Under the pieces are notes generated by a model. The model made no database searches, had not been told where the DNA came from, and saw nothing but the letters and a program-made list of their open reading frames with translations. 64,000 bases of DNA from Biomphalaria pfeifferi (taxonomy: Eukaryota), in NCBI GenBank assembly GCA_030265305.1, contig JASAOG010000080.1, positions 1,874,630-1,938,629 of the forward strand, read 5' to 3'. Numbering within the stretch: the stretch's first letter is position 1; each line of letters opens with the position of its first letter. Position numbers and translations under genes: made by a program. This document shows positions 1 through 36,735 of this stretch, one piece after another.

Positions 1-1431
1 CTCGGCTGACCGTTGTAACTCGTCATGGTTGACCACTCTTCTAGCGCTGGCCTGGGGCGATTTGCGTCGGCTGACTACACACACACCACTACCCCTCTCT
101 GTGCCACCACCAGGTTTATAACAATATCCTACCCACTGCCAACCCCCATCAACCTGCGGAAGGTTTGGGCTAGGATGTAAGTTATCTTCAACTCTTTAGG
201 AACATCTGAAACATGTAAAGCAATTTTGTGTTTCATGTATTTCATGACATCCTATTTTTATTGTTACAAAACAATTGGGCTACTACAGAAATCTTTGGAT
301 GACAAAAAGATCAAGATCCTAGAAAGAAACACACCAAACTTTTTATTTTCAAATTCTTTTACTAAAAGTTTTAGTTAGGGAAAGGAAAGGGGGTTGACTA
401 CACAAGGAAATTACACATAAAAAATAAAATGCTTAAAAGCTGAAGTATAATCTTGTACTTTTCAATATTGTAACATATGTTGGCTTAAAAAACAACAACA
501 TGTTGAGTCAATATTGCGAATAAAAAAATTGATTTTGGTACATTTTATTGCTGATGCTGTGGTTTCGACCATGAAAATATCTTAGTTGTCCTAGAGATGC
601 TAGATTAAGGTAAGAGGTAAAGGTTACATTTTCCTATTTTTGTCAAGAGCAAGTGGTAGAATTAGTGATGAGTGATAAATCAATCAGGGCCCTAATATAT
701 AAATATATAATATATATATATTGGCCTCCTTCAGTCATAGAACGACCATGGTTTATCTCAAACACTTTTTCCTATGGCTGTGGAGCCTTATTTGGAGAGA
801 CTTTCCCGTCCACATATATAGCAAGTCAATTTGTTTTTCACTTTTGGTGGTAGAGGAGCAGGCCATTTTTTAATATATAATAGATCTTATGACCTAGATA
901 TCGGTATAGATAGATCTAAGAAAATTGTAAACATAATTAAAAATTATACTTGATTATCAAGCTAGGCTATATCATTGGATTATGATAAGATTTTTATTGA
1001 ATTAATTGAATCGATGATTGATTATGAAGGCCGTGTTATACTTGATACTAGACTAATCTCTCTAGTGACTCTAGATTCCCCTAGCGGGCCCTAGCCCGCT
1101 AGGGCTAGGCTAGAATGACTTAGGGCTTAGATCTAGATAGATGAAGATTAGTTCAGTGAGTGAGTTTAGATCTTTAACTTAGTTATGTTATAAAAATATA
1201 AATATATACTTTATTATATAGTAACAATATAGTTATATACTAATATAGTAGTATTCTTAGTAGATCTTCTACTAGTTCTAGATTCTACTACTAGTACAGT
1301 TACTATAGTAGTAAGTTACTAAGTAACTAGACTCTTATCTACATATTCATTTCATTATCATATTCTACATTTAGAATAGTCTTAGACGTCTTAGTGACTT
1401 AGTACTCTTACTGAGTTACTGATTTTTTTTT

Positions 1432-3989
1432 GGCAAGATCCTGTTTCAGTTCATTTATTTACCGTTGCTATCACGGCAACAGGCGGCCACTTTTTGCCAG
1501 ATGGACTTCGTTACTGATGCAAAAATAAAACAAAAAATAAAATTGAGGAAGTTTTTTTTGCTGCCAACTAAAAAATATAATTTTGATAAATAAATATAGA
1601 TGGGTTAGTAAGTGTAGACCTATTTTATTTCATCAGAACATATATTTTCATTTTAATATATCGAGAATCTATAGCATTTCTATACATTTGTATGTGTTTT
1701 GTAGCTCAAGTTTGTTAATAATAAAATGTTTATGTTCTGTCTTTCTCTGGCAATTATTTAATAAACTTTAAAAAAATCATCTCATGTTTCTTTTTTCCAA
1801 TTTGCTAATGGTTCAATTAATATTGCGTGTGTGTGTGTCACCGATGATTTTCCCTATTATCCTATACGTGGACTTTTTTGTTTACATTTTTTTACAATTA
1901 ATACGGGTATTTGAAAATAAAATATTTTAAAATTTTACTTACCGATTATCCATTAGCCTATCGTGATTAATGCCGGCCCCCCTACTTTCTCATTCTGGAC
2001 TTGGGACCTGAGATGAACTCCAATTGGTGACAAGGCAGGGAGACCTAGGTCTCCCGTAGTGCCCTCGTAAGGAACTCTGCTGTTTGGCGTAGTGCCTCAT
2101 AGCTTCCATACAAACATAGTGAACCACTGTATACGTCTTACCGCAGCTCGCTGAGCTGCGAACACTCTTGCAAGACGTGAGCCACCGTCTCTTCTGATTC
2201 CCCGCAGTGTCGGCAACAGGCATCAAAATTTGGCTGGAACCGGGCGAAGTACGCACCTATGGGGCAGTGTCCCGTACACCACTGCGCTATTGTTGTTTGT
2301 TCCGACCTTTTTAGCCTCCACCACAAGTCCTCTCGATTTGGGCGACGCATGTGCTGCCAGAATCCCCTGGCAGTGTTGGAATCATCCCAGGATTTCAACC
2401 ATTTTTCATGTACCCACTCTCGTATAACTGTGGTAGCCTATTGGAAGGTACTTGGTGACTCGAAAGTGGGCACGGCCAGCGCTCCTTCTCGTGCTAGAGC
2501 ATCAGCCACGGCATTGCCCCTCACGCCGCAGTGCAAGGGCACCCACTGCATAAAGATGACAGCTCCAATAAATAGGCGGATGTTATTTGCGGCGGCTAAT
2601 GCCTCTTCCACCAATTTGGACTTTCCCCCTAAGCCAGCCATGGCTTGGAGGCAGGACTGGGAATCGGTAACTATTACAACAGTTGTCGCAACGGTTATCT
2701 TTTCGTGCAGTTTTTGGAGCAGGTAATTGAGTGTATTGGTTAATTCGTTAATTCTGCATCAAAGCTACATGTGGCGAGGCTTGTCTAGTTCGTGTTCTGG
2801 GTAACAGATATAGGCCCCATACCCAGCTCTTACGGAGTCCTTCATGACCGACCCGTCTGTGTAACAGTAGATGGAATCGGCCGGGTAGGTCTTTAGTGTG
2901 TCCAATGCCATTTTTCCGAGTAAATCCGGGTGTGTGTGTCGTTTTGAGGCCCCCTCCAACCCGTGTATAGTGAAATTTATGGGAGGGATGTGCTGTCTCC
3001 TCCAGGGCGGGCACGTGCTTATCCGTCGGATTGGGACCCGGTCAGTGGAGAGGCCAGCTTGAGCACTCAAATTTGACGCGCGGTGCATAAATGATGTCCA
3101 TTTTATCCTGTTTTTTACTCTCCACTGAGTGACTAATGTATGGGTCGGGAGCCCTGGTTCGCCCCTTTGGTAGCGTTCCAGGGCCGTTAGCACGGCGCGC
3201 TCTCTCCTCAGGCTGAGAGGAGCCACGTTGGACACGATTTCTGCAGCGGAAGTTGGGCTCATTCTATAGGTAGCCGCAAATGAATCTGAGAGCCTGGGCC
3301 TGTACACGGTCACCCACCTCTTTCAGCCCCATCTTCTCCCCCCCCCGCCGGCCCGCTCCCGCAGTTTCACCCATTTCAGCTTCAGTGACTCTAGTCTAGA
3401 GGCTAGATTACAGACAGTCATTGTACCTGGTATATATCTATCAAAGTTAATAAATATTTATGACATTCTTTTCTATAAGGACATAAGCTGTGTATAGCGT
3501 GTTCTAGATACTATGCAACAAGCCACGTAAAACACAACAATTATTTCAACTTTGTTAAAAAATATTACAAGTTGTCAGCACCTTAAATCGTTATCTAAAC
3601 ATTTAAAATGTATCATATTCATCTATACAATAATCCCATCATATCTATTTAAATTCAATTTTTATAGCATAAAAAATCGGTACCTAGATTTACGCTTTTT
3701 CGTGTTATTACTGTCATTCTAATTTAAGAATATTAATGTATACCCCCCCCCCCCCTTTTTTTAATACTTCAAACAATATAGCATATATTCCTATTAATTC
3801 TATTTGTTTTATTTTCTCTCTCTTCCTAACATGTTTTAGCTCACTGTATTAAAAATCAACTAGGTTATCCCCCCTTAGAAATATTTCTTTTAGTCTTGAT
3901 CCAACAGCTAGACAACGCAATAAAAATCTGGCCTGCACCAATATGGCTGCCTAGAGATGTAAATAAATGAACTGAAACAGGATCTTGCC
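1432..3989. mobile_element. Non-autonomous TIR DNA-transposon-like element (2558 bp), hAT-like by TSD length. It has 31-bp perfect terminal inverted repeats (GGCAAGATCCTGTTTCAGTTCATTTATTTAC / its reverse complement) and a flanking 8-bp T-run as putative TSD
   Basis: 1432-1462 and 3959-3989 are exact reverse complements. Both outer flanks are T8-9 runs on the same strand, consistent with a direct duplication of TTTTTTTT. The inner approximately 80 bp on each side is also related but diverged. The interior encodes no transposase; instead it carries a GC-rich LINE fragment. Confidence 0.55.
1976..3390 (-). mobile_element. 5'-truncated non-LTR retrotransposon fragment (I/R1/LOA-like ORF2 C-terminus: RNase H domain plus CCHC-type Cys motif), GC-rich, decayed
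   Basis: The minus-strand ORFs carry YTDGS...AGYG (the RNase H DxG block), QWVPLHCGVRGNAVADALAREGA, and ...TGHCPIGAYFARFQ...CCRHCGESEETVAHVLQEC (a post-RNH Cys-His motif). Frameshifts between the ORFs show it is a pseudo-copy. The plus-strand 155-aa ORF at 2259-2726 is an antisense shadow. Confidence 0.7.
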
Positions 3990-4567
3990 TTTTTTTTACT
4001 CTTAGGAGTTAGGTCGAGTTGTGTCTAGAATCTAGAAATAACCAACCTGCTTTATATGGTGCTTATAATAGGGTTGTGCGTCAGGTGGAAGTTTTTTAAC
4101 GACTCGAAGTAAATATTTATAGAGTTGTAGGGGAGTTTTGGTGGTCATACTAAGACACTGGCACCGTCTTCGATTTGTAAATCTGCACATGTATGTAAAT
4201 TATTAAAATCTTATGACTTAAAAGTATAGAAAAATGCATCTGTTTATTAAAAGGTAATTTAGAGTGGTTTCCCAAATTGAGAGCTAGGCATGACACAAGT
4301 TTCCCCAAACTATAACTATACTCAGTATACTGGTAAAACTAGAGCTGTATTTTTTATGTTTAAATTTTATTTATATATACTATTGTGTTTAAAAAAAAGT
4401 ATTTAAGGCAAATAAAATATAAATACGAAAATGAGGCTGCATAAAAAAGTAGGGACGCTATAGGTAAAATAAAAAATGGCGACGTAAACAAAAGCACGTT
4501 ACTATTTTTTTTTCATGTAAAATTAATAGAGGTATTTAACATTGTTTTAATAAAATCATCACCTACC

Positions 4568-5240
4568 ATGGCCCTAGACCAGACAACCAAGCTACTTCTA
4601 GAAAAAGAAATGCTTCCATTTCTGACGCCATCCGCGCGACCCGACGTTAAATCAATTGCTGTTCGATATTTTTTGGAAATGACGGGTTCGAAAGAAGGAC
4701 GAGACTTCATTGCAGAAGGAAACACATTTATCCCAGCCATAATTTCACTAACTACAGACACTCAGCTGGATGCTGCTAAGGACGCTTTTCTCACACTTAT
4801 CAATCTGTCTTCAGAAGATACAATATCCTGGAAACTTATGCACAATGATGCTACATCCACATTTATAATGGACTTGCTACAAAAAATTCTACAACCTGAC
4901 TTTAAATTTGCTGATGAGGCTTGTAGTATTGTTTCCAATGTCACTAGAATACCATCTTGTGCTAAACATTTAGCAGAGCAGGTGCTTGCAGATAATTCAA
5001 AAGTTACTATTGAAAAGATAGTATCTGTTTTGTGTCAAATAAATTATAACAAACATGCAGCACTCCATTATTTGGGACTTATTTTGTCAAATCTAACTCA
5101 AGTTTCAGAAATACGTAAAATAATAATGGACAAAGAAAAAAGAATAATACAAAAGCTATTACCTTTTACAGAGTATGCTGATTCTTTGACACGTAGAGGT
5201 GGCATCTTAGGAACTTTAAAAAACTGCTGCTTTGAATATG
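4568..5240 (+). CDS. HGH1: HGH1 (FAM203/brain protein 16) homolog, coding exon 1 (ATG at 4568; donor GT at 5241)
   Basis: A 228-aa ORF aligns by eye to human HGH1: KLLPFL..AR.D....AVR..L..TG and RRGG..GTL.NCCFE. The exon ends ...CCFEY|gtaggc in phase 1, which joins exon 2 to give the conserved continuation D-YHQWLL. Confidence 0.88.
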
Positions 5241-7225: not shown

Positions 7226-8345
7226 AAGAATATTTATCATCTAGCACCTTTTTTCTTTGTTACAGATCTGTTGACCATTTGTTGTTTTTTTTTTTGTACT
7301 TTTTTTTTTCAAAAATGTATTTTTAAAAGACATTAAATTCTTTGACTCATCTTTTCATAATGAGTAACAATACACATCACAAATTAATTTACTAACACAA
7401 CAATACTGTTAACTACTCTTTAATATTTACAACTATGAATGACTCTTTTCGTTGCACTACTTCTTAAAGTGACATATCATATACTGTGTAGAACTCATAC
7501 TTTTCATCAATGTAGTAGGCTTGACCTGGTAGTTCTTGTTGATTTAGCAGCATACATACAGCCAGTTGATGCAAACTCTGGGAGTGGTAGCTTTTGGGTT
7601 AGTTGTGGGTATTATACTATTTATAGAGTAACAAAAAGTATGTATTAAAAAACAAATATGAGTAATAATTTAGCAGGATGACTGAACAACTATAACACCA
7701 TTACAAGATTGTCATTACAGCACTGCATAAATTTACTTTCTTTCTACCACATACAGTAACTTAAAAGACACAGCAAAGATAAATGACCCCCAATAAACAA
7801 ACAGGTTAGGCATACGGATCATGTTCTACATAAGAACAAAGACTTCATAACTTGTATTAACCTGGAAACAAAAAAAATGCAAAAGTCTCTTTTAAAGATA
7901 ACTGTGAAAAATTTGGAAGAAAGACATCTTTTTTACAATTGATATATCTACAAGGGAGATGCTGAGAAGATATCAACAAAGACTGCTGGCCGTTCAATAT
8001 GACAAAATTTGGAAATTAGATGTTAAGTATTTATGTCATACTGGTTATAGTTTTACATAAATTTTCACAATTAAACTAATGCAAAAAAGAATAATCTTTG
8101 TTAACATATTCTTGAAATTGTGAGAAAGAATATAAATGCAAAATAAAGATATATATATTAAAAAAAAAAAAGATTAAGTTCATAGTAATTTTTTTTTTTT
8201 TTTACATTTCAGTTGACTTTACTTAACAGCTAAAAAATCAAAACATAGTTCACCTGTAAACTATCCTACATACAAATTTATTACAAAAGTTATTTGAATA
8301 AAAAAAACAAGTATATATACACAATTTACATGCAACAAATATATT

Positions 8346-9138: not shown

Positions 9139-9245
9139 CTCTGAGATAACTGTAAAGTGCTTCCTTTTTCTGAATCTTTAATTTTCTTTTTGTGCCTTTT
9201 CTTCTTTTGTGTCATTTGATTCATAAGTTGATACTGTTCTGGAAG
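9139..9245 (-). CDS. MED19: MED19 homolog, coding exon (LPEQYQLMNQMTQKKKRHKKKIKDSEKGSTLQLSQ)
   Basis: Acceptor caatatag|CTTCCAGAACAG and strong donor CAGAG|gtaagt. LPEQYQLM matches the human MED19 motif GPLPEQCRLMH. Confidence 0.8.
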
Positions 9246-9586
9246 CTATATTGTAAGTAATATTTAAATACATAAGTTTTTCATATTTCAGAAATGCTGA
9301 TAAATAACAGGTGGAATCACAAATTAATGCCAGTTACCCGGCTTACTCATGTCTAATTTTTAACACTCAATAGAATTTTAAGCATTTTTGGGAAAAAAAA
9401 ATTAAACAGCTGTCAACATAGTAATATTACTTTGACAGAATTTTTTTCCTCTATTAAGTTTCAGTTTTCAATTTTTTTTTTACCATTCTTGTTTTTCTCA
9501 GGGAGTTTTTAAATTTAAAATAAAATTTAAAATTCTAAAAACAACTTGATATATATTTTATGTCATATTAAAAAACAACAACTTAC

Positions 9587-18372: not shown

Positions 18373-18570
18373 CAGTATTTAGAAATATTGCTTTAATACA
18401 ATCTTGATAAGTCTTCGTATCCTCGAGAAAATATTATAAATAAGGTGATCGGATAGGCTTGGTTTTTGTATGGTAACTACATTTATAGTCCTCCCCCACC
18501 CACCCACCACCAATTAGGCCTACGCTTTTTTTCTTTGGTTGTAATCTGTTCTTATTTGACTTTTCAGAAG

Positions 18571-19989
18571 ATGTCTATCCAGCGAGTACTGCTTCGATTA
18601 CTGAGATTTTCACTACCGATTCTTTTTGTATTTCTACTTCTGAGCGGGTCTTTTATTATTAGTTTTGTAAGAAACAAGCTTTGGGCCTTTCGACTTAAAA
18701 CGCCGTTGGTGCCATACAATGAACTGGAAAGGAGTCACGTTTCCAGGGAGCTCGTGCTGAAACAGTTCCAAAACGACATTGAAATTGTTTGGGCTCAGCG
18801 GGAAAGAGGGCCCAAGCTGAAAGACCACTGCTTGAAGTCAAAACTGGACGTCATTTGCACGGATGTTCAATACAATATAGACATTGCGCAAGGCATGGGG
18901 TTGTCTATCCCCGAGAGCAACGTGTCGATTTCAGGAAATATAACTGCCAACTATAAGGTTCTTCCACCCGTTTCCAATATTACGAAAATAGTTTCTTCGG
19001 TGAATCCTGGGTATTTACGGAAAAACCTGTGCTACAACGTTTCCAGAACTCGACAACTAGTGAAAAGGACAGTCGACGCAAACTTCTGTCCGCGTTTACT
19101 CAAACTCTTTGAAGACATCACAATAAAGGCTGAGCCGTATTTACTGCTTCTATTCACTTGGTGGCCTGACTACTTGGTGGACGTCGACAAGTTCAGCAGA
19201 AAGCTGCTACTGGAAAACTGCAAGCGGGTTCGACCATTCGTCAAAACCATCATCTTTACGGACAGCAGGATGACTATGGCTAACGCCAACGCCATGAACT
19301 TCACTTGTCTTCCGGTGCCGGATTACAGTTCTGGAGGCCTTCCAATTTTTCAAAATATGGCCAAGGTTGTGATGGAAAAGTTTAGCGCCACGTTTTACGG
19401 CTACGTCAAGGCCACAAGTGTATTCGACGCGTCCTTTCTAGAGTCACTCTTAGGCGTCAAAGAGATCCTAGTCAAGTCCTCGCAGAACGAAAAATCTAAA
19501 TCTAACCGATTTTCCAACTCAAAGCCTATCGCAATGTACGGGGAAGCCATGTATTACCAAAAGCTCAGTAGCGCTGCGGACTTGTACGAGCTTAACCTGC
19601 TGGCCTACACTAGAGGGAGCTACGAGTGGGAAAACCATCAGGCCTCTTTCGTTTATTTCGTGTTTACCAAGCAAGACATGTCAGACGTTCCACCTTTAAT
19701 CATCGACGACGACGCCCTGGTTCCGTTTTTGATAGAGCGTTCTAGAACGCTGGGCCACCTGGTGATAAACGTTGGCCGAACTGTAACAGCTCTGTACACA
19801 TCCCACAATGCCACCAGGTCAGAGTGGAACCGGAAGTACATTAAAGAGCTACCACGGGATTCACTTTACAACAAGAATCTCGCCATGAAGTATTTCAGTT
19901 CGAAAGTAATGAATAGTTCCCATGAATCTCATGATCTCTACAGCACATTCAACATAGATGGCAAAATTGTTTTTAAAGGATGGGCTTGA
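18571..19989 (+). CDS. Intronless ORF (472 aa from the first ATG) with predicted type II membrane topology and an N-glycosylation-site-rich luminal domain; family not recognised
   Basis: This is the longest ORF in the window, and the track starts it at a non-ATG TTG at 18466. From the first ATG it reads MSIQRVLLRLLRFSLPILFVFLLLSGSFIISFV... The N-terminus is a short basic cytoplasmic tail followed by one hydrophobic signal-anchor and then a large domain with many N-x-S/T sites (NVS, NIT, NVS, NFT, NAT) and acidic DxD-like motifs (VDVDKF, IIDDDAL). The region is clearly GC-richer than its AT-rich surroundings. It shows no RT, transposase or other TE signature. A ttttcag sits immediately 5' of the ATG, so an upstream non-coding exon is possible. 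Confidence 0.6.
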   Translation: MSIQRVLLRLLRFSLPILFVFLLLSGSFIISFVRNKLWAFRLKTPLVPYNELERSHVSRELVLKQFQNDIEIVWAQRERGPKLKDHCLKSKLDVICTDVQYNIDIAQGMGLSIPESNVSISGNITANYKVLPPVSNITKIVSSVNPGYLRKNLCYNVSRTRQLVKRTVDANFCPRLLKLFEDITIKAEPYLLLLFTWWPDYLVDVDKFSRKLLLENCKRVRPFVKTIIFTDSRMTMANANAMNFTCLPVPDYSSGGLPIFQNMAKVVMEKFSATFYGYVKATSVFDASFLESLLGVKEILVKSSQNEKSKSNRFSNSKPIAMYGEAMYYQKLSSAADLYELNLLAYTRGSYEWENHQASFVYFVFTKQDMSDVPPLIIDDDALVPFLIERSRTLGHLVINVGRTVTALYTSHNATRSEWNRKYIKELPRDSLYNKNLAMKYFSSKVMNSSHESHDLYSTFNIDGKIVFKGWA

Positions 19990-34075: not shown

Positions 34076-36735
34076 TAGTTTAGCCAAATATGTAACAATA
34101 AGACCTGACAGCTCACCGTACACTACCTTTGAGATGTGCGAGTTTCACCTCTCCCACCACAGTAGAACACGGATTTTTATTGTCTTGTACCGCCCACCAC
34201 CAAGCAAGAGAAAAGTTTTCATCGAAGAATTTCAAAACCTTCTTGACAGTCACATAGCAACAAAAGATCTATTTGCCATAGACGATGTGAACTTGCATTT
34301 CGACTGTGAAAATGAGACATAAACGGTGTTACTGAAAAATGCACTAAAGGATCGCAACTTAGACCAACTGATAAACGTTCCAACACACGTCAAAGGTCAT
34401 ACTCTTGACTGGATTGTTACAAATGCAAGTGAACTTATAGCCAAACTCAATGTCTTATACCGTGGCTTGTCAGGTCATTTTCTTGTACACTTTGAAATGC
34501 GCCTATCAAAAACAAAAAGGCCAAGGAAAAACGTGACTTCACGTAAACTTAAAGCCATAGACATTGCCTCCTTTAAAATGGGCGTAACCTCTTTGCTGTT
34601 GCAACAGAGCAACACAGACGTTCTCAGCAATTACAGTTCTTGCTTGAAAAAGTTGCTGGATAGCCATGCAGCTTTTGTCACTCGTACAGTCTCAGTTAGG
34701 CCATCTGCACCCTGAATGACGGAAGACGTAAAGATTGCCCAAACTTATTCGCCGACGTGCCGAAAGTACATTTCAAAAGACAGGTCTGACGATACATCGA
34801 CAAATCTACATCCTAGAAAATAACAAGGTAAACCGCATGATTAGGGACGTAAAAGCTAGTCATATTCGACACAAAATCGAAACTTCTGATTCTTCAAAGG
34901 AGCTGTTTAGGATCACCGCTGAAATGTTAGGGGGAGCTAATAACGAACGTTTGCCGTCATCTATCCCAGCATCTGAACTCCCTGATTCCTTCAATAGATT
35001 CTTCATTGGCAAGATTGAACTGATTAGAAATGACATGTCATCCCTCTCATCACAGCTTGACCACTCTCCAATCTTTCAAAATTCTCCTTTTTGCGAGTTT
35101 CAGCGTGTCTCTGTAGATAATGTCAAAAGTATTATTTTAAAGATGGCAAATAAGTCATGTGACATTGATCCCATTCCAACTTCCTTGCTCCTTGAATGTT
35201 TAGATGAGCTTGTACCCACAATTACTAACATTGTGAACTCTTCACTGACTTCAGGCATTGTACCACATCAGTTTAAGCATGCACTTGTCAGGCCCTTATT
35301 AAAGAAATCCAGTCTTGAACCGGAATGTCTAAAAAAAAACTATCGCCCGGTATCAAATCTTCCCTTCCTGTCAAAGCGTCTGGATTACATCGTGTTAGCA
35401 CAAATTCTTTCTCATCTTGAACAGTACTGTCTCTTGGAAGAATTTCAATCTGCATATAGGAAGTGCCGCAGCGCAGACACAGCAGTGGTCAGGGTACTAA
35501 ACGACTTACTTCACAATTCCGACATGGGCCACATATCAATACTTTCCATGCTGGACTTGTCCGCAGCCTTTGATACGCTAGGCCATGAAATTATGATGGC
35601 CAGATTCTCTGCCCTTTTGGTTTAGCAGGAATAGTTTTAAAGTGGCTTACATCCTACCTGACTGAACGCACCCAAAGTGTCGTTGTTTATCAACAAGCTT
35701 ACTTTTGAAGTACGAAGTACCCCAAGGATCAGTTCTAGGCCCAGTACTGTTCACTATGTATACATATCCACTCAGCGGTGTCATACGGCCAATCGGCATC
35801 TTATACCACTTCTTTGCCGATGACTCACAGTTATACGATTCCTCAGTACCCTCAGAGGTGTCGCAACTGGCAGAGAAAATCAGTGGTACCGTTGCAAGGG
35901 TGAGCGATTGAATGGTTGAGAATAAACTCAAGATGAACGAAGACAAGACAGAAATAATTAAGATTGGCACTCGAAACAACGTCTCAAAAGTCGAGAGCAC
36001 AGATTCTCTTTTTATCACGAACTGCCAGATTCCTTTTGTCCATGTAGTGCGGAATTTTGGTATTTTCTTCGACTCAACACTATCCTTTAACCCACACATA
36101 AGTCAGCTCTGCAAGGGTCTTTATCTGCAGCTGCGCAAATTAGGCCGGATCCGACCATATTTAACAACGGAGTCAACAAACAAGCTAGCTGTGGCATTCA
36201 TACTTTCCCGCCTTGACTACTGCAACGCCGTGCTAGCAGGTATACCCGATGACAAAATAGAATAGCAATAGTCCTTAGAAAAACAAGACGAGATTCTGCT
36301 ACTACGCTCTTGCGCACTCTCCATTGGCTTTCCGTGAAAGCGAGAATCGATTACAAGGTGGCCACACTTAGTCATCAGTGTATATATAACAGTGAGATGC
36401 CCTTGTACCTTAGCGAACTAATCACTCCATATATCCCTCAGAGAGCCCTACGCTCAAAGGACTCATCGCTTCTAGTGGTGCCACGTTTCTCCCTCAAAAG
36501 ATACGGTCTTTTTCAGTGCACGGCCCAAAGGTTTGGAACTCACTCGCCATTGATTTCAGACAGACAGCATGCTCACTTCTTTCAAGAAGAACATTAAGAC
36601 CTACCTGTTTAAAACCTTTTTAGATTAATTTGTCGTTTTAGCTCTCGTGTTTGTAATGTTATTACAGCGCCTTGAGCCTACATTTTGTTTGTTAACAGCA
36701 CTTTATAAATAAACTTATTATTATTTTGTTTTTGA
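34076..36735 (+). mobile_element. L2-type LINE, 5'-truncated and frameshifted (distal APE endonuclease, reverse transcriptase, L2 C-terminal domain, 3'UTR)
   Basis: Successive ORFs in shifting frames carry VLYRPP..., PTHVKGHTLDWIVTN (EN), YRPVSNLPFLSKRLDYIV...QSAYRKCRSADTAV...LDLSAAFDTLGHEI (RT motifs), RNFGIFFDSTLSFNPHISQLCKG...LRKLGRIRPYL, and LHWLSVKARIDYKVATLSHQC...SLKRYG..TAQRFGTHSPL...FKKNIKTYLFKTF (the L2 tail). Confidence 0.8.

Follow-up and report, generated by a model that had tools for sequence, protein, structure and literature searches.

A segment of 2,558 bp (1432-3989) within the B. pfeifferi window, by which we mean the whole 64-kb stretch of DNA analyzed here, is probably a copy of a non-autonomous class II DNA transposon with terminal inverted repeats (TIRs), inside which a fragment of a LINE is nested. 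An earlier note, made from the same DNA, had proposed that the segment may be a DNA transposon of the non-autonomous kind, with a target-site duplication (TSD) of 8 bp and a LINE fragment, and this reading is supported by the TIRs, by the T8 flanks and by the empty orthologous sites reported below, its ambiguous part being the length of the TSD. The features on which the analysis is based are collected in Table 1.

Table 1. Coordinates of the element, its flanks and the neighboring exons in the window
Feature	Position	Strand	Remarks
Left T9 run	1423..1431	.	Left copy of the putative 8-bp TSD plus one T
Left TIR	1432..1462	+	GGCAAGATCCTGTTTCAGTTCATTTATTTAC, begins 5'-GG; perfect 31-nt inverted repeat
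Left AT-rich non-coding arm	1463..1949	.	27% GC; inner boundary approximate, +/-30 bp
5'-truncated, decayed I-superfamily-type LINE fragment	1950..3337	-	Both boundaries approximate
Zinc-binding (CCHC) region, zf-RVT	2153..2338	-	Pfam; motif CRHCGESEETVAHVLQEC readable
RNase H domain	2480..2872	-	Pfam RNase_H, E=4.4e-11, 43.6 bits, profile 4-140 of 141
Right non-coding arm	3338..3958	.	34% GC overall, 29% from 3431 on
Right TIR	3959..3989	-	Perfect 31-nt inverted repeat
Right T8 run	3990..3997	.	Right copy of the putative 8-bp TSD
Coding part of exon 1, LYR-motif (Complex1_LYR) gene	4047..4148	-	Pfam Complex1_LYR, E=8.4e-6
HGH1 exon 1	4568..5239	+	Divergently transcribed from the LYR gene

Termini, flanks and the orthologous intron

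The two ends of the segment, when compared directly, are exact reverse complements of each other at 31 of 31 positions, and a search of the 64-kb window for the 31-mer with up to three mismatches returns these two sites only, with none in 100 shuffles, which corroborates the perfect 31-bp TIRs described previously. The element terminus reads GGCAAG, with GG at 1432-1433 and CC at 3988-3989, and the runs of eight to nine T that had been noted outside both TIRs are indeed present, abutting the two TIR ends on the same strand. The empirical probability of finding identical 8-nt flanks at the spacing of the element is 6.5e-5 in the window, and that of two T8 runs abutting it is ~6e-6, for a putative TSD that is a T homopolymer and whose true length may be anywhere from 0 to 8 nt (9 with one mismatch). 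The further claim that some 50 bp inside each TIR are related is weakly favored by local alignment (score 26 against 18.3+/-3.3 in shuffles, of which 8 in 300 score as high; p ~0.03), whereas blastn at word size 7 detects no inverted repeat past the 31-mer. Foldback elements, with which this one shares inverted termini and the absence of a transposase, possess long inverted arms that are internally repetitive, with subrepeats. The element has neither long inverted arms nor tandem subrepeats; only 31 nt are repeated in inverted orientation, the arms being otherwise unrelated, and the foldback-like structure once offered as an alternative was consequently discarded (no inverted repeat beyond 31 nt with blastn at word size 7, and a marginal local alignment).

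The element is located ~50-58 nt into intron 1 of the LYR-motif gene, the splice donor GT of which lies at 4046-4045 and for which orthologous 72-aa gene models are present in B. glabrata and Bulinus. In the adjacent HGH1 exon 1, identity reaches 100% with the HGH1 of B. pfeifferi (P0055) and 99% with that of B. glabrata, which marks the window as B. pfeifferi-type DNA. Neither Bulinus truncatus nor any of three B. glabrata assemblies has the 2.56 kb in its orthologous intron: positions 1356-3996 of the window (2,640 bp) are represented by just 60-123 bp in the three B. glabrata assemblies, the flanks of these empty sites being 89-94% identical to the window, and no TIR-like sequence is found in the whole Bulinus LYR gene, which measures 2.1 kb in all. 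T-runs do occur in the empty alleles about as far from exon 1 (T11 in B. glabrata, T6 in Bulinus). The insertion site is a hypervariable low-complexity stretch, in which the three B. glabrata alleles differ mutually by 17-60-bp indels and MAFFT leaves the T-runs unaligned to each other, and the empty site is not base-exact. The check for an empty site in related species suggested in the earlier note has thus yielded the missing 2.56 kb and a nearby T-run in three B. glabrata assemblies and Bulinus, but not a site exact to the base. The absence of the 2.56 kb from the B. glabrata and Bulinus truncatus intron lends independent support to the transposon reading, and the element can be regarded as a lineage-specific insertion with a putative 8-bp duplication.

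Two origins that do not involve a transposon were weighed against this evidence. It is very improbable that the block represents a one-off insertion, for instance filler left by break repair or a segment brought in from another part of the genome, whose inverted-repeat ends arose by accident and whose T-runs reflect local low complexity. Its single copy in all the DNA examined and its hypervariable, indel-prone site are in line with such an event, but the 31-nt TIRs lie exactly at the block ends and each abuts the same 8-mer, for which the joint chance is far below 1e-6, and such an arrangement is what integration by a transposase canonically leaves behind. The second origin is a retroposed copy, in which an RNA would have been inserted minus-wise by the LINE machinery, with T9 as the poly(A) tail seen on the plus strand and an A-rich target duplication. 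LINE endonucleases often cut T/A-rich targets, a preference with which the T/A-rich flanks agree, and the minus strand reads A8-insert-A9. Such an origin is nevertheless hardly credible, since the LINE 3' end lies ~500 bp within the block and not at its end, the supposed tail would consist of a few A at most, and both ends of the RNA would have to coincide precisely with the outermost bases of a perfect 31-nt inverted repeat.

On the preferred reading as a TIR transposon, an autonomous relative would have provided a DDE transposase in trans, which recognized the TIRs and cut the element out of its donor site. Integration would have proceeded by 8-bp staggered cuts in the T-run ~50 bp inside intron 1 of the LYR-motif gene, and eight T would have been duplicated through gap fill-in, presumably once the African (B. 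pfeifferi-type) lineage and B. glabrata had diverged, and in the former. A clean insertion with an 8-bp TSD would imply an empty allele of the form ...CTGA-T(8-9)-ACTCTTAGG...

Interior of the element and the presumably nested LINE

The central part of the element differs markedly in composition from its arms (52% GC versus 27% and 34%) and comprises, on the minus strand, the C-terminal tail of a LINE ORF2, a stop codon at 2045-2047 and ~75-100 nt of 3'UTR. It represents only the last ~1.3 kb of a LINE, devoid of reverse transcriptase (RT) and endonuclease, and it can be followed in one reading frame that is interrupted by four in-frame stops and by at least one frameshift, near 3270. The RNase_H match, which corresponds to residues 148-278 of the stitched translation 3313->2048, exceeds the gathering score, and the zf-RVT match falls under it both in the stitched translation (E=0.004) and in a single ORF (E=0.00029). 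The GC-rich, minus-strand LINE ORF2 fragment reported in the earlier note is therefore substantiated by both its domains and its composition. The succession of RNase H and CCHC zinc region is that of I-superfamily ORF2 proteins, the RT being missing through 5' truncation. A B. glabrata LINE-type protein is 58% identical to the fragment over 411 aa, residues 77-472 of P0056 match 3274-2051 at 58% in tblastn, P0062 is 90% identical over 2665-2417, and P0059, also a relative, carries both RVT_1 and RNase_H; in addition, a 3'UTR motif at 1970-2011 is common to another LINE fragment. With the I-superfamily LINEs of Biomphalaria (Nimbus/BgI, Ingi-type) the fragment hence shares the RNase H-then-CCHC ORF2 C-terminus and 58-90% identity to B. 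glabrata LINE-derived proteins; it differs from them in the loss of endonuclease and RT, the latter being the domain by which clades are classified, and in its stops and frameshift. A DIRS or Penelope-like element with inverted termini was also considered and rejected, because the RNase H/zf-RVT tail is LINE-type and the inverted repeat extends over only 31 nt. Among the classified repeats of B. glabrata, LINEs, with Nimbus among them, rank first in abundance (PMC5440852).

The GC-rich center is most simply explained as a dead-on-arrival product of target-primed reverse transcription nested in the element. The earlier note had allowed for an element that either captured or was invaded by a LINE fragment, and invasion fits better than capture because what is left is a LINE 3' end, 5'-truncated in the classic manner, with stop codon and 3'UTR still in place. 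A related LINE has left a comparable 5'-truncated fragment nested in a Biomphalaria Merlin element, and this independent case suggests that LINE nesting is common in the Biomphalaria genome. When the 8-mers common to both LINE borders were compared, neither a TSD nor an A-rich tail could be demonstrated around the nested LINE. The only two shared 8-mers were rejected as a LINE TSD: GCCGGCCC, at 1972 and 3347, belongs to the LINE 3'UTR according to the comparison with another LINE fragment, and AAATATTT, at 1920 and 3452, is a palindrome of A and T only that is expected by chance.

Gap-repair filler and transduplication are the usual origin of internally rearranged non-autonomous elements, and the LINE fragment could in principle be filler DNA from abortive double-strand-gap repair after excision, or the result of transduplication, instead of a nested retrotransposition. 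The want of a flanking TSD or A-rich tail and the unexplained origin of 3338-3430 beside the 5' junction speak for such a process, which we nonetheless deem unlikely: the fragment, once truncated at its 5' side, continues past the ORF2 stop into the 3'UTR, exactly as incomplete target-primed reverse transcription leaves it, a randomly captured piece is not expected to stop at the LINE 3' end, and a second Biomphalaria DNA transposon has the same kind of 3'-anchored LINE fragment. With nested retrotransposition as the preferred explanation, the element would have been an AT-rich sequence of ~1.1-1.2 kb before the LINE arrived, and the nesting could have taken place either before or after its own arrival at the locus.

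The remainder of the interior agrees with the earlier claim that no transposase ORF is present. The ORFs of the arms are all short and contain no Pfam domains, and tblastn of 82 Merlin transposases against the element produces no significant match. The best of these matches are weak (E >= 0.003 before correction for the 82 queries) and were dismissed as transposase remnants, since they fall within the LINE coding region and are already explained by LINE homology. Searches for Rfam families in the element and for tandem repeats gave nothing relevant, the left arm having no Rfam match and the arms no tandem subrepeats, and neither arm has a relative elsewhere in the window or among the fetched loci. 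The right arm contains a C13T7 run at 3743-3765.

Superfamily assignment and other copies

Three classes, hAT, P and Merlin, had been put forward for the element. Elements of the hAT superfamily start with 5'-YARNG and generate 8-bp TSDs, and those of the P superfamily start with 5'-CA, generate 7-8-bp TSDs and encode a THAP-domain transposase; the Drosophila P element combines 31-nt TIRs with an 8-bp duplication, and P and hAT alike typically give rise to non-autonomous copies with internal deletions or filler. The element, with termini GG...CC, departs from the CA...TG of P and, starting with GGCAAG, from the YARNG of hAT, although an 8-bp TSD is possible, and it contains no remnant of a THAP or hAT transposase; only its geometry of 31-nt TIR and 8-bp TSD agrees with that of P. 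The 5'-GG terminus thus favors Merlin among the three and disfavors hAT and P. In published Merlin families the TIRs measure 24-462 bp and begin with 5'-GG, and the TSDs are 8-9 bp long (PMC8101967). Terminal 5'-GG, a 31-nt TIR and an 8-bp duplication are hence best fitted by the IS1016/IS1595-related Merlin superfamily, to which the element may belong, at somewhat less than even odds.

The comparison with Merlin elements of Biomphalaria bears on this assignment in both directions. The element begins with the 5'-GG of Merlin, its TIR length lies in the published range, and its T9/T8 flanks permit a TSD of 8 bp, in a homopolymer where any length up to 8 looks alike. It contains, however, neither an ORF nor a remnant of a DDE_Tnp_IS1595 transposase, and its TIRs do not match those of an autonomous Merlin. 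Five Biomphalaria Merlin loci encode an identical 301-aa DDE_Tnp_IS1595 ORF, and the 6.9-kb B. glabrata copies are 97-99.6% identical, with 8-bp TSDs and GG termini, so that Merlin looks, from these sequences, to have been recently active in Biomphalaria. The element TIR was not found, with up to eight mismatches, in the five B. glabrata Merlin loci, which represent one Biomphalaria Merlin family. Two related gastropod-type Merlin TIRs likewise begin with GGCA, yet the element TIR shares just GGYA/GGCA with four Merlin TIRs and does not have their inner GGTCCC/GGACCC motif; beyond GGYA it is unrelated both to the Biomphalaria Merlin TIR GGTAAAACTTTACATCGCAGGACCCT and to those of the two related families (GGCACT...GGTCCC).

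This dissimilarity past GGYA leaves some room for a non-autonomous TIR transposon of another superfamily (hAT, P, short-TIR MULE, Sola3, Novosib, Zisupton or PIF/Harbinger), which is possible but rather doubtful. The T-homopolymer TSD is ambiguous in length and could hide a shorter duplication within the T-run, the geometry is that of the Drosophila P element, and a hAT family of ~1,000 copies is reported for B. glabrata (PMC5440852). Against this, the element starts with the GG that is conserved at Merlin termini, and not with YARNG or CA, and it carries no transposase of any kind by which to decide.

The hallmark of a transposon family is the presence of many dispersed copies with the same termini and different TSDs. 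No second copy of the TIR occurs in the 64-kb window together with ~131 kb of B. glabrata (~195 kb of Biomphalaria), nor in 22 kb of Bulinus. In metagenome, viral and prokaryotic genome collections, the outermost 20 nt of the TIR have no genuine relative, the 15 matches obtained being all prokaryotic coding sequence that does not extend past 20-21 nt and hence attributable to chance, and TIR 15-mers gave a single irrelevant match in literature full text. It is possible, if less than likely, that the element is the first representative encountered of an undescribed non-autonomous family, perhaps mobilized by Merlin, that has been transposing in African Biomphalaria since the split from B. glabrata.

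Significance

As a textbook nested-transposon insertion, the element is of little general significance. Were it to belong to such an undescribed family, class II elements would be active, or lately so, in snails that transmit schistosomes. This would run counter to the B. glabrata genome paper of 2017, which reported neither recent activity of DNA transposons nor an intact transposase. Taken together with the intact multi-copy Merlin of B. glabrata, the element hints that cut-and-paste transposons were mobile later than that first genome paper concluded. Unclassified repeat elements make up 17.6% of the B. glabrata genome (PMC5440852), and the TIRs reported here would define a new repeat-library entry if the family proved to be multi-copy. 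At a more practical level, an insertion ~50 bp from an exon-intron junction, beside the bidirectional HGH1/LYR promoter, may provide a presence/absence marker for Biomphalaria species or populations. At the same locus, one B. glabrata allele harbors an unrelated 5.3-kb insertion ~100 bp off.

Ends of the element and its insertion site

The 2,558-bp element at 1432-3989 is bounded by the perfect inverted repeat claimed in the earlier note, 3959-3989 being the exact reverse complement of 1432-1462 (GGCAAGATCCTGTTTCAGTTCATTTATTTAC), and the same-strand runs of T described outside this repeat are likewise present (T9 at 1423-1431, T8 at 3990-3997). At up to three mismatches, the 31-mer occurs within the 64-kb window only at the two element ends, and in none of 100 dinucleotide-preserving shuffles. 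The window holds 52 runs of at least eight T, the chance of both ends abutting one is about 6e-6, and for an identical 8-mer flank of any sequence at the element's spacing the empirical probability is 6.5e-5. The further kinship of some 50 bp claimed inside each terminal inverted repeat (TIR) is weak: its local alignment score of 26, against 18.3+/-3.3 for shuffled sequence, was reached by 8 of 300 shuffles, and blastn (word size 7) returned nothing besides the 31-mer.

The exon at 4568-5239 codes for HGH1 (100% identity to the Biomphalaria pfeifferi protein, 99% to B. glabrata), which places the window in B. pfeifferi or in an African species very closely related to it. On the minus strand, 4148-4047 is exon 1 of a gene for a LYR-motif protein of 72 aa (Pfam Complex1_LYR, E=8.4e-6), for which orthologous gene models exist. 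The splice donor of this exon is at 4046-4045, which puts the right T8 about 50 nt into intron 1 and makes the element intronic. The two genes stand head to head (4148-4568), an arrangement kept in B. glabrata and Bulinus, and the mere 420 bp or so between their start codons suggests that they share a bidirectional promoter.

The orthologous locus of three B. glabrata assemblies (L001-L003) and the LYR gene of Bulinus truncatus were used for comparison. The B. glabrata flanks are 89-94% identical to the window, the 2,640 bp of window 1356-3996 are represented by just 60-123 bp in the three assemblies, and the entire LYR gene of Bulinus truncatus spans 2.1 kb and has no TIR-like sequence. Given its absence from both, the element was, on this sequence comparison, inserted in the lineage of B. 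pfeifferi rather than deleted from B. glabrata, and we regard it as a real feature, now carrying a nested dead LINE fragment, that entered the intron after the split of the two species. The empty-site comparison proposed earlier bears out the absence of the element from all four sequences, but the insertion point lies within a low-complexity, indel-prone stretch (TCTTAG/ACTAG motifs) that precludes an exact reconstruction of the empty site, because the three B. glabrata alleles differ among themselves. The T-runs of the window and of the B. glabrata alleles were left unpaired in the MAFFT alignment. The empty alleles nonetheless have a run of T similarly far from exon 1 (T11 at ~67 nt in B. 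glabrata, T6 at ~50 nt in Bulinus), as would be predicted if the element had entered a T-run already in place and duplicated 8 bp of it.

LYR intron 1 is hypervariable and of low complexity over its initial ~150 bp (TCTTAG/ACTAG motifs plus the T-run), with indel differences of 17-60 bp among the three B. glabrata alleles and two independent large insertions in different lineages. At L001:3881-9210 (B. glabrata GCA_025434165.1), an LTR-retrotransposon-like insertion of 5.3 kb lies ~100 bp from the element's site; it has terminal direct repeats of ~350 bp (100% identical over 300 nt, then 91% over 57 nt), a 691-aa gag-like ORF (zf-CCHC, SCAN) and an unusually long flanking duplication of 42 bp, and is missing from the other two assemblies.

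Coordinates of the element's interior and of other features
Feature	Window position	B. glabrata position	Description
Left arm	1463 to ~1949		27% GC
Central block	~1950-3337		52% GC
Right arm	~3338 to 3958		34% GC (29% from 3431 on)
Homopolymer runs, right arm	3743-3765		C13, then T7 immediately
Hypervariable stretch	1357-1431 and 3998-4020	L001-L003 around 9240-9400	low complexity
510-aa ORF	18457-19986		apparently single exon; N-terminal hydrophobic segment; no Pfam match

A LINE fragment inside a probable non-autonomous transposon

The arms hold only short ORFs, with no Pfam or Rfam match and no notable tandem repeats, and neither a transposase nor a remnant of one was found in the element, in line with the lack of transposase claimed earlier. 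The central block is a single minus-strand frame, 3313 to 2048, with four in-frame stops and a frameshift near 3270. Its stitched translation matches Pfam RNase_H over the full length of the domain (43.6 bits, E=4.4e-11, exceeding the gathering score) and, below the Pfam threshold, a zf-RVT zinc region that includes CRHCGESEETVAHVLQEC, which upholds the claim of a LINE RNase H and CCHC fragment on this strand. The translation shares 58% identity with the B. glabrata LINE-type protein P0056 across 411 residues, and 90% across 83 residues with the RNase H portion of P0062, a chimeric B. glabrata gene model; in relatives reaching further upstream, such as P0059, RVT_1 precedes RNase H, and both reverse transcriptase (RT) and endonuclease are absent from the element's fragment. 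From these similarities, the central block is read as the 5'-truncated 3' end of an I-superfamily-type LINE. The fragment, in sense orientation relative to the LYR gene, still has the stop codon of ORF2 (2045-2047) and some of the 3'UTR, in which a 43-nt motif (1970-2011) is shared with another LINE fragment.

P0062, annotated in UniRef as 'reverse transcriptase domain-containing protein', joins its RNase H tail to an RT segment, so this gene model is stitched from transposable element fragments. A second LINE remnant at 34323-36600, whose 297-aa open frame matches RVT_1 (E=7e-8), has no DNA-level kinship with the element's fragment.

The earlier note suggested that the element may have captured a LINE fragment or been invaded by one. 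Given its anchoring at the 3' end of the LINE and its 5' truncation, the piece is best explained by nested, dead-on-arrival insertion into a DNA transposon; without it, the AT-rich element would measure about 1.1-1.2 kb. Neither a duplication nor a tail was found at the borders of the piece, and capture via gap repair is for this reason kept as a minority alternative to nested insertion. Two candidate duplications were rejected: GCCGGCCC, an 8-mer at both LINE borders, lies within the LINE 3'UTR, and AAATATTT, a palindrome of A and T only, would be expected by chance.

Taken together, the perfect short TIRs, the abutting direct repeat, the missing coding capacity and the lineage-specific presence form the signature of a non-autonomous cut-and-paste TIR DNA transposon, of which the element would be a copy mobilised in trans. 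Going by the established behaviour of DDE transposons, a transposase would have bound the element, excised it and integrated it at a staggered cut. The element is ordinary in kind. No further copies were found in ~195 kb of Biomphalaria DNA (the window plus ~131 kb of B. glabrata) or in 22 kb of Bulinus. Matches to the TIR in metagenome, viral and prokaryotic collections were only 20-21 nt long, lay in bacterial genes and were dismissed as chance.

Possible affinity to Merlin

The terminal GG of the element differs from the termini of hAT (YARNG) and P (CA) transposons and agrees with those of Merlin. In Merlin families described in the literature, the TIRs measure 24-462 bp, 5'-GG is conserved at the terminus and the duplications are 8-9 bp long (PMC8101967). 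A protein search with a B. glabrata Merlin protein from the supplement of that work gave as best match P0069, a 301-aa DDE_Tnp_IS1595 protein encoded identically at five B. glabrata loci (L019-L023). The elements there are 6.9 kb long (e.g. L020:1612-8496), are 97-99.6% identical, keep an intact ORF, end in GGTAAAACTTTACATCGCAGGACCCT and are flanked by clean 8-bp duplications (GGTTTCAA, GTTAGTAG and GTATAGAT). The identical intact ORF, the similarity of the copies and these duplications indicate that Merlin is present in Biomphalaria and looks recently active, in contrast with the 2017 B. glabrata genome paper, which detected no intact transposase and considered DNA transposable elements not recent (PMC5440852).

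The TIR of the five B. glabrata Merlin loci differs from that of the element. Two related families start GGCACT...GGTCCC; the element has GGCA alone in common with these, its TIR being devoid of the inner GGTCCC motif. In view of both differences, Merlin is a tentative assignment and our best guess, somewhat short of an even bet.

The B. glabrata Merlin element at L020 itself contains a ~300-bp 5'-truncated LINE 3' fragment (3606-3876), 78% identical to window 2051-2323, and a 43-nt piece with the same LINE 3'UTR motif (~7934-7976). Nested fragments of this LINE group thus seem common in DNA transposons.
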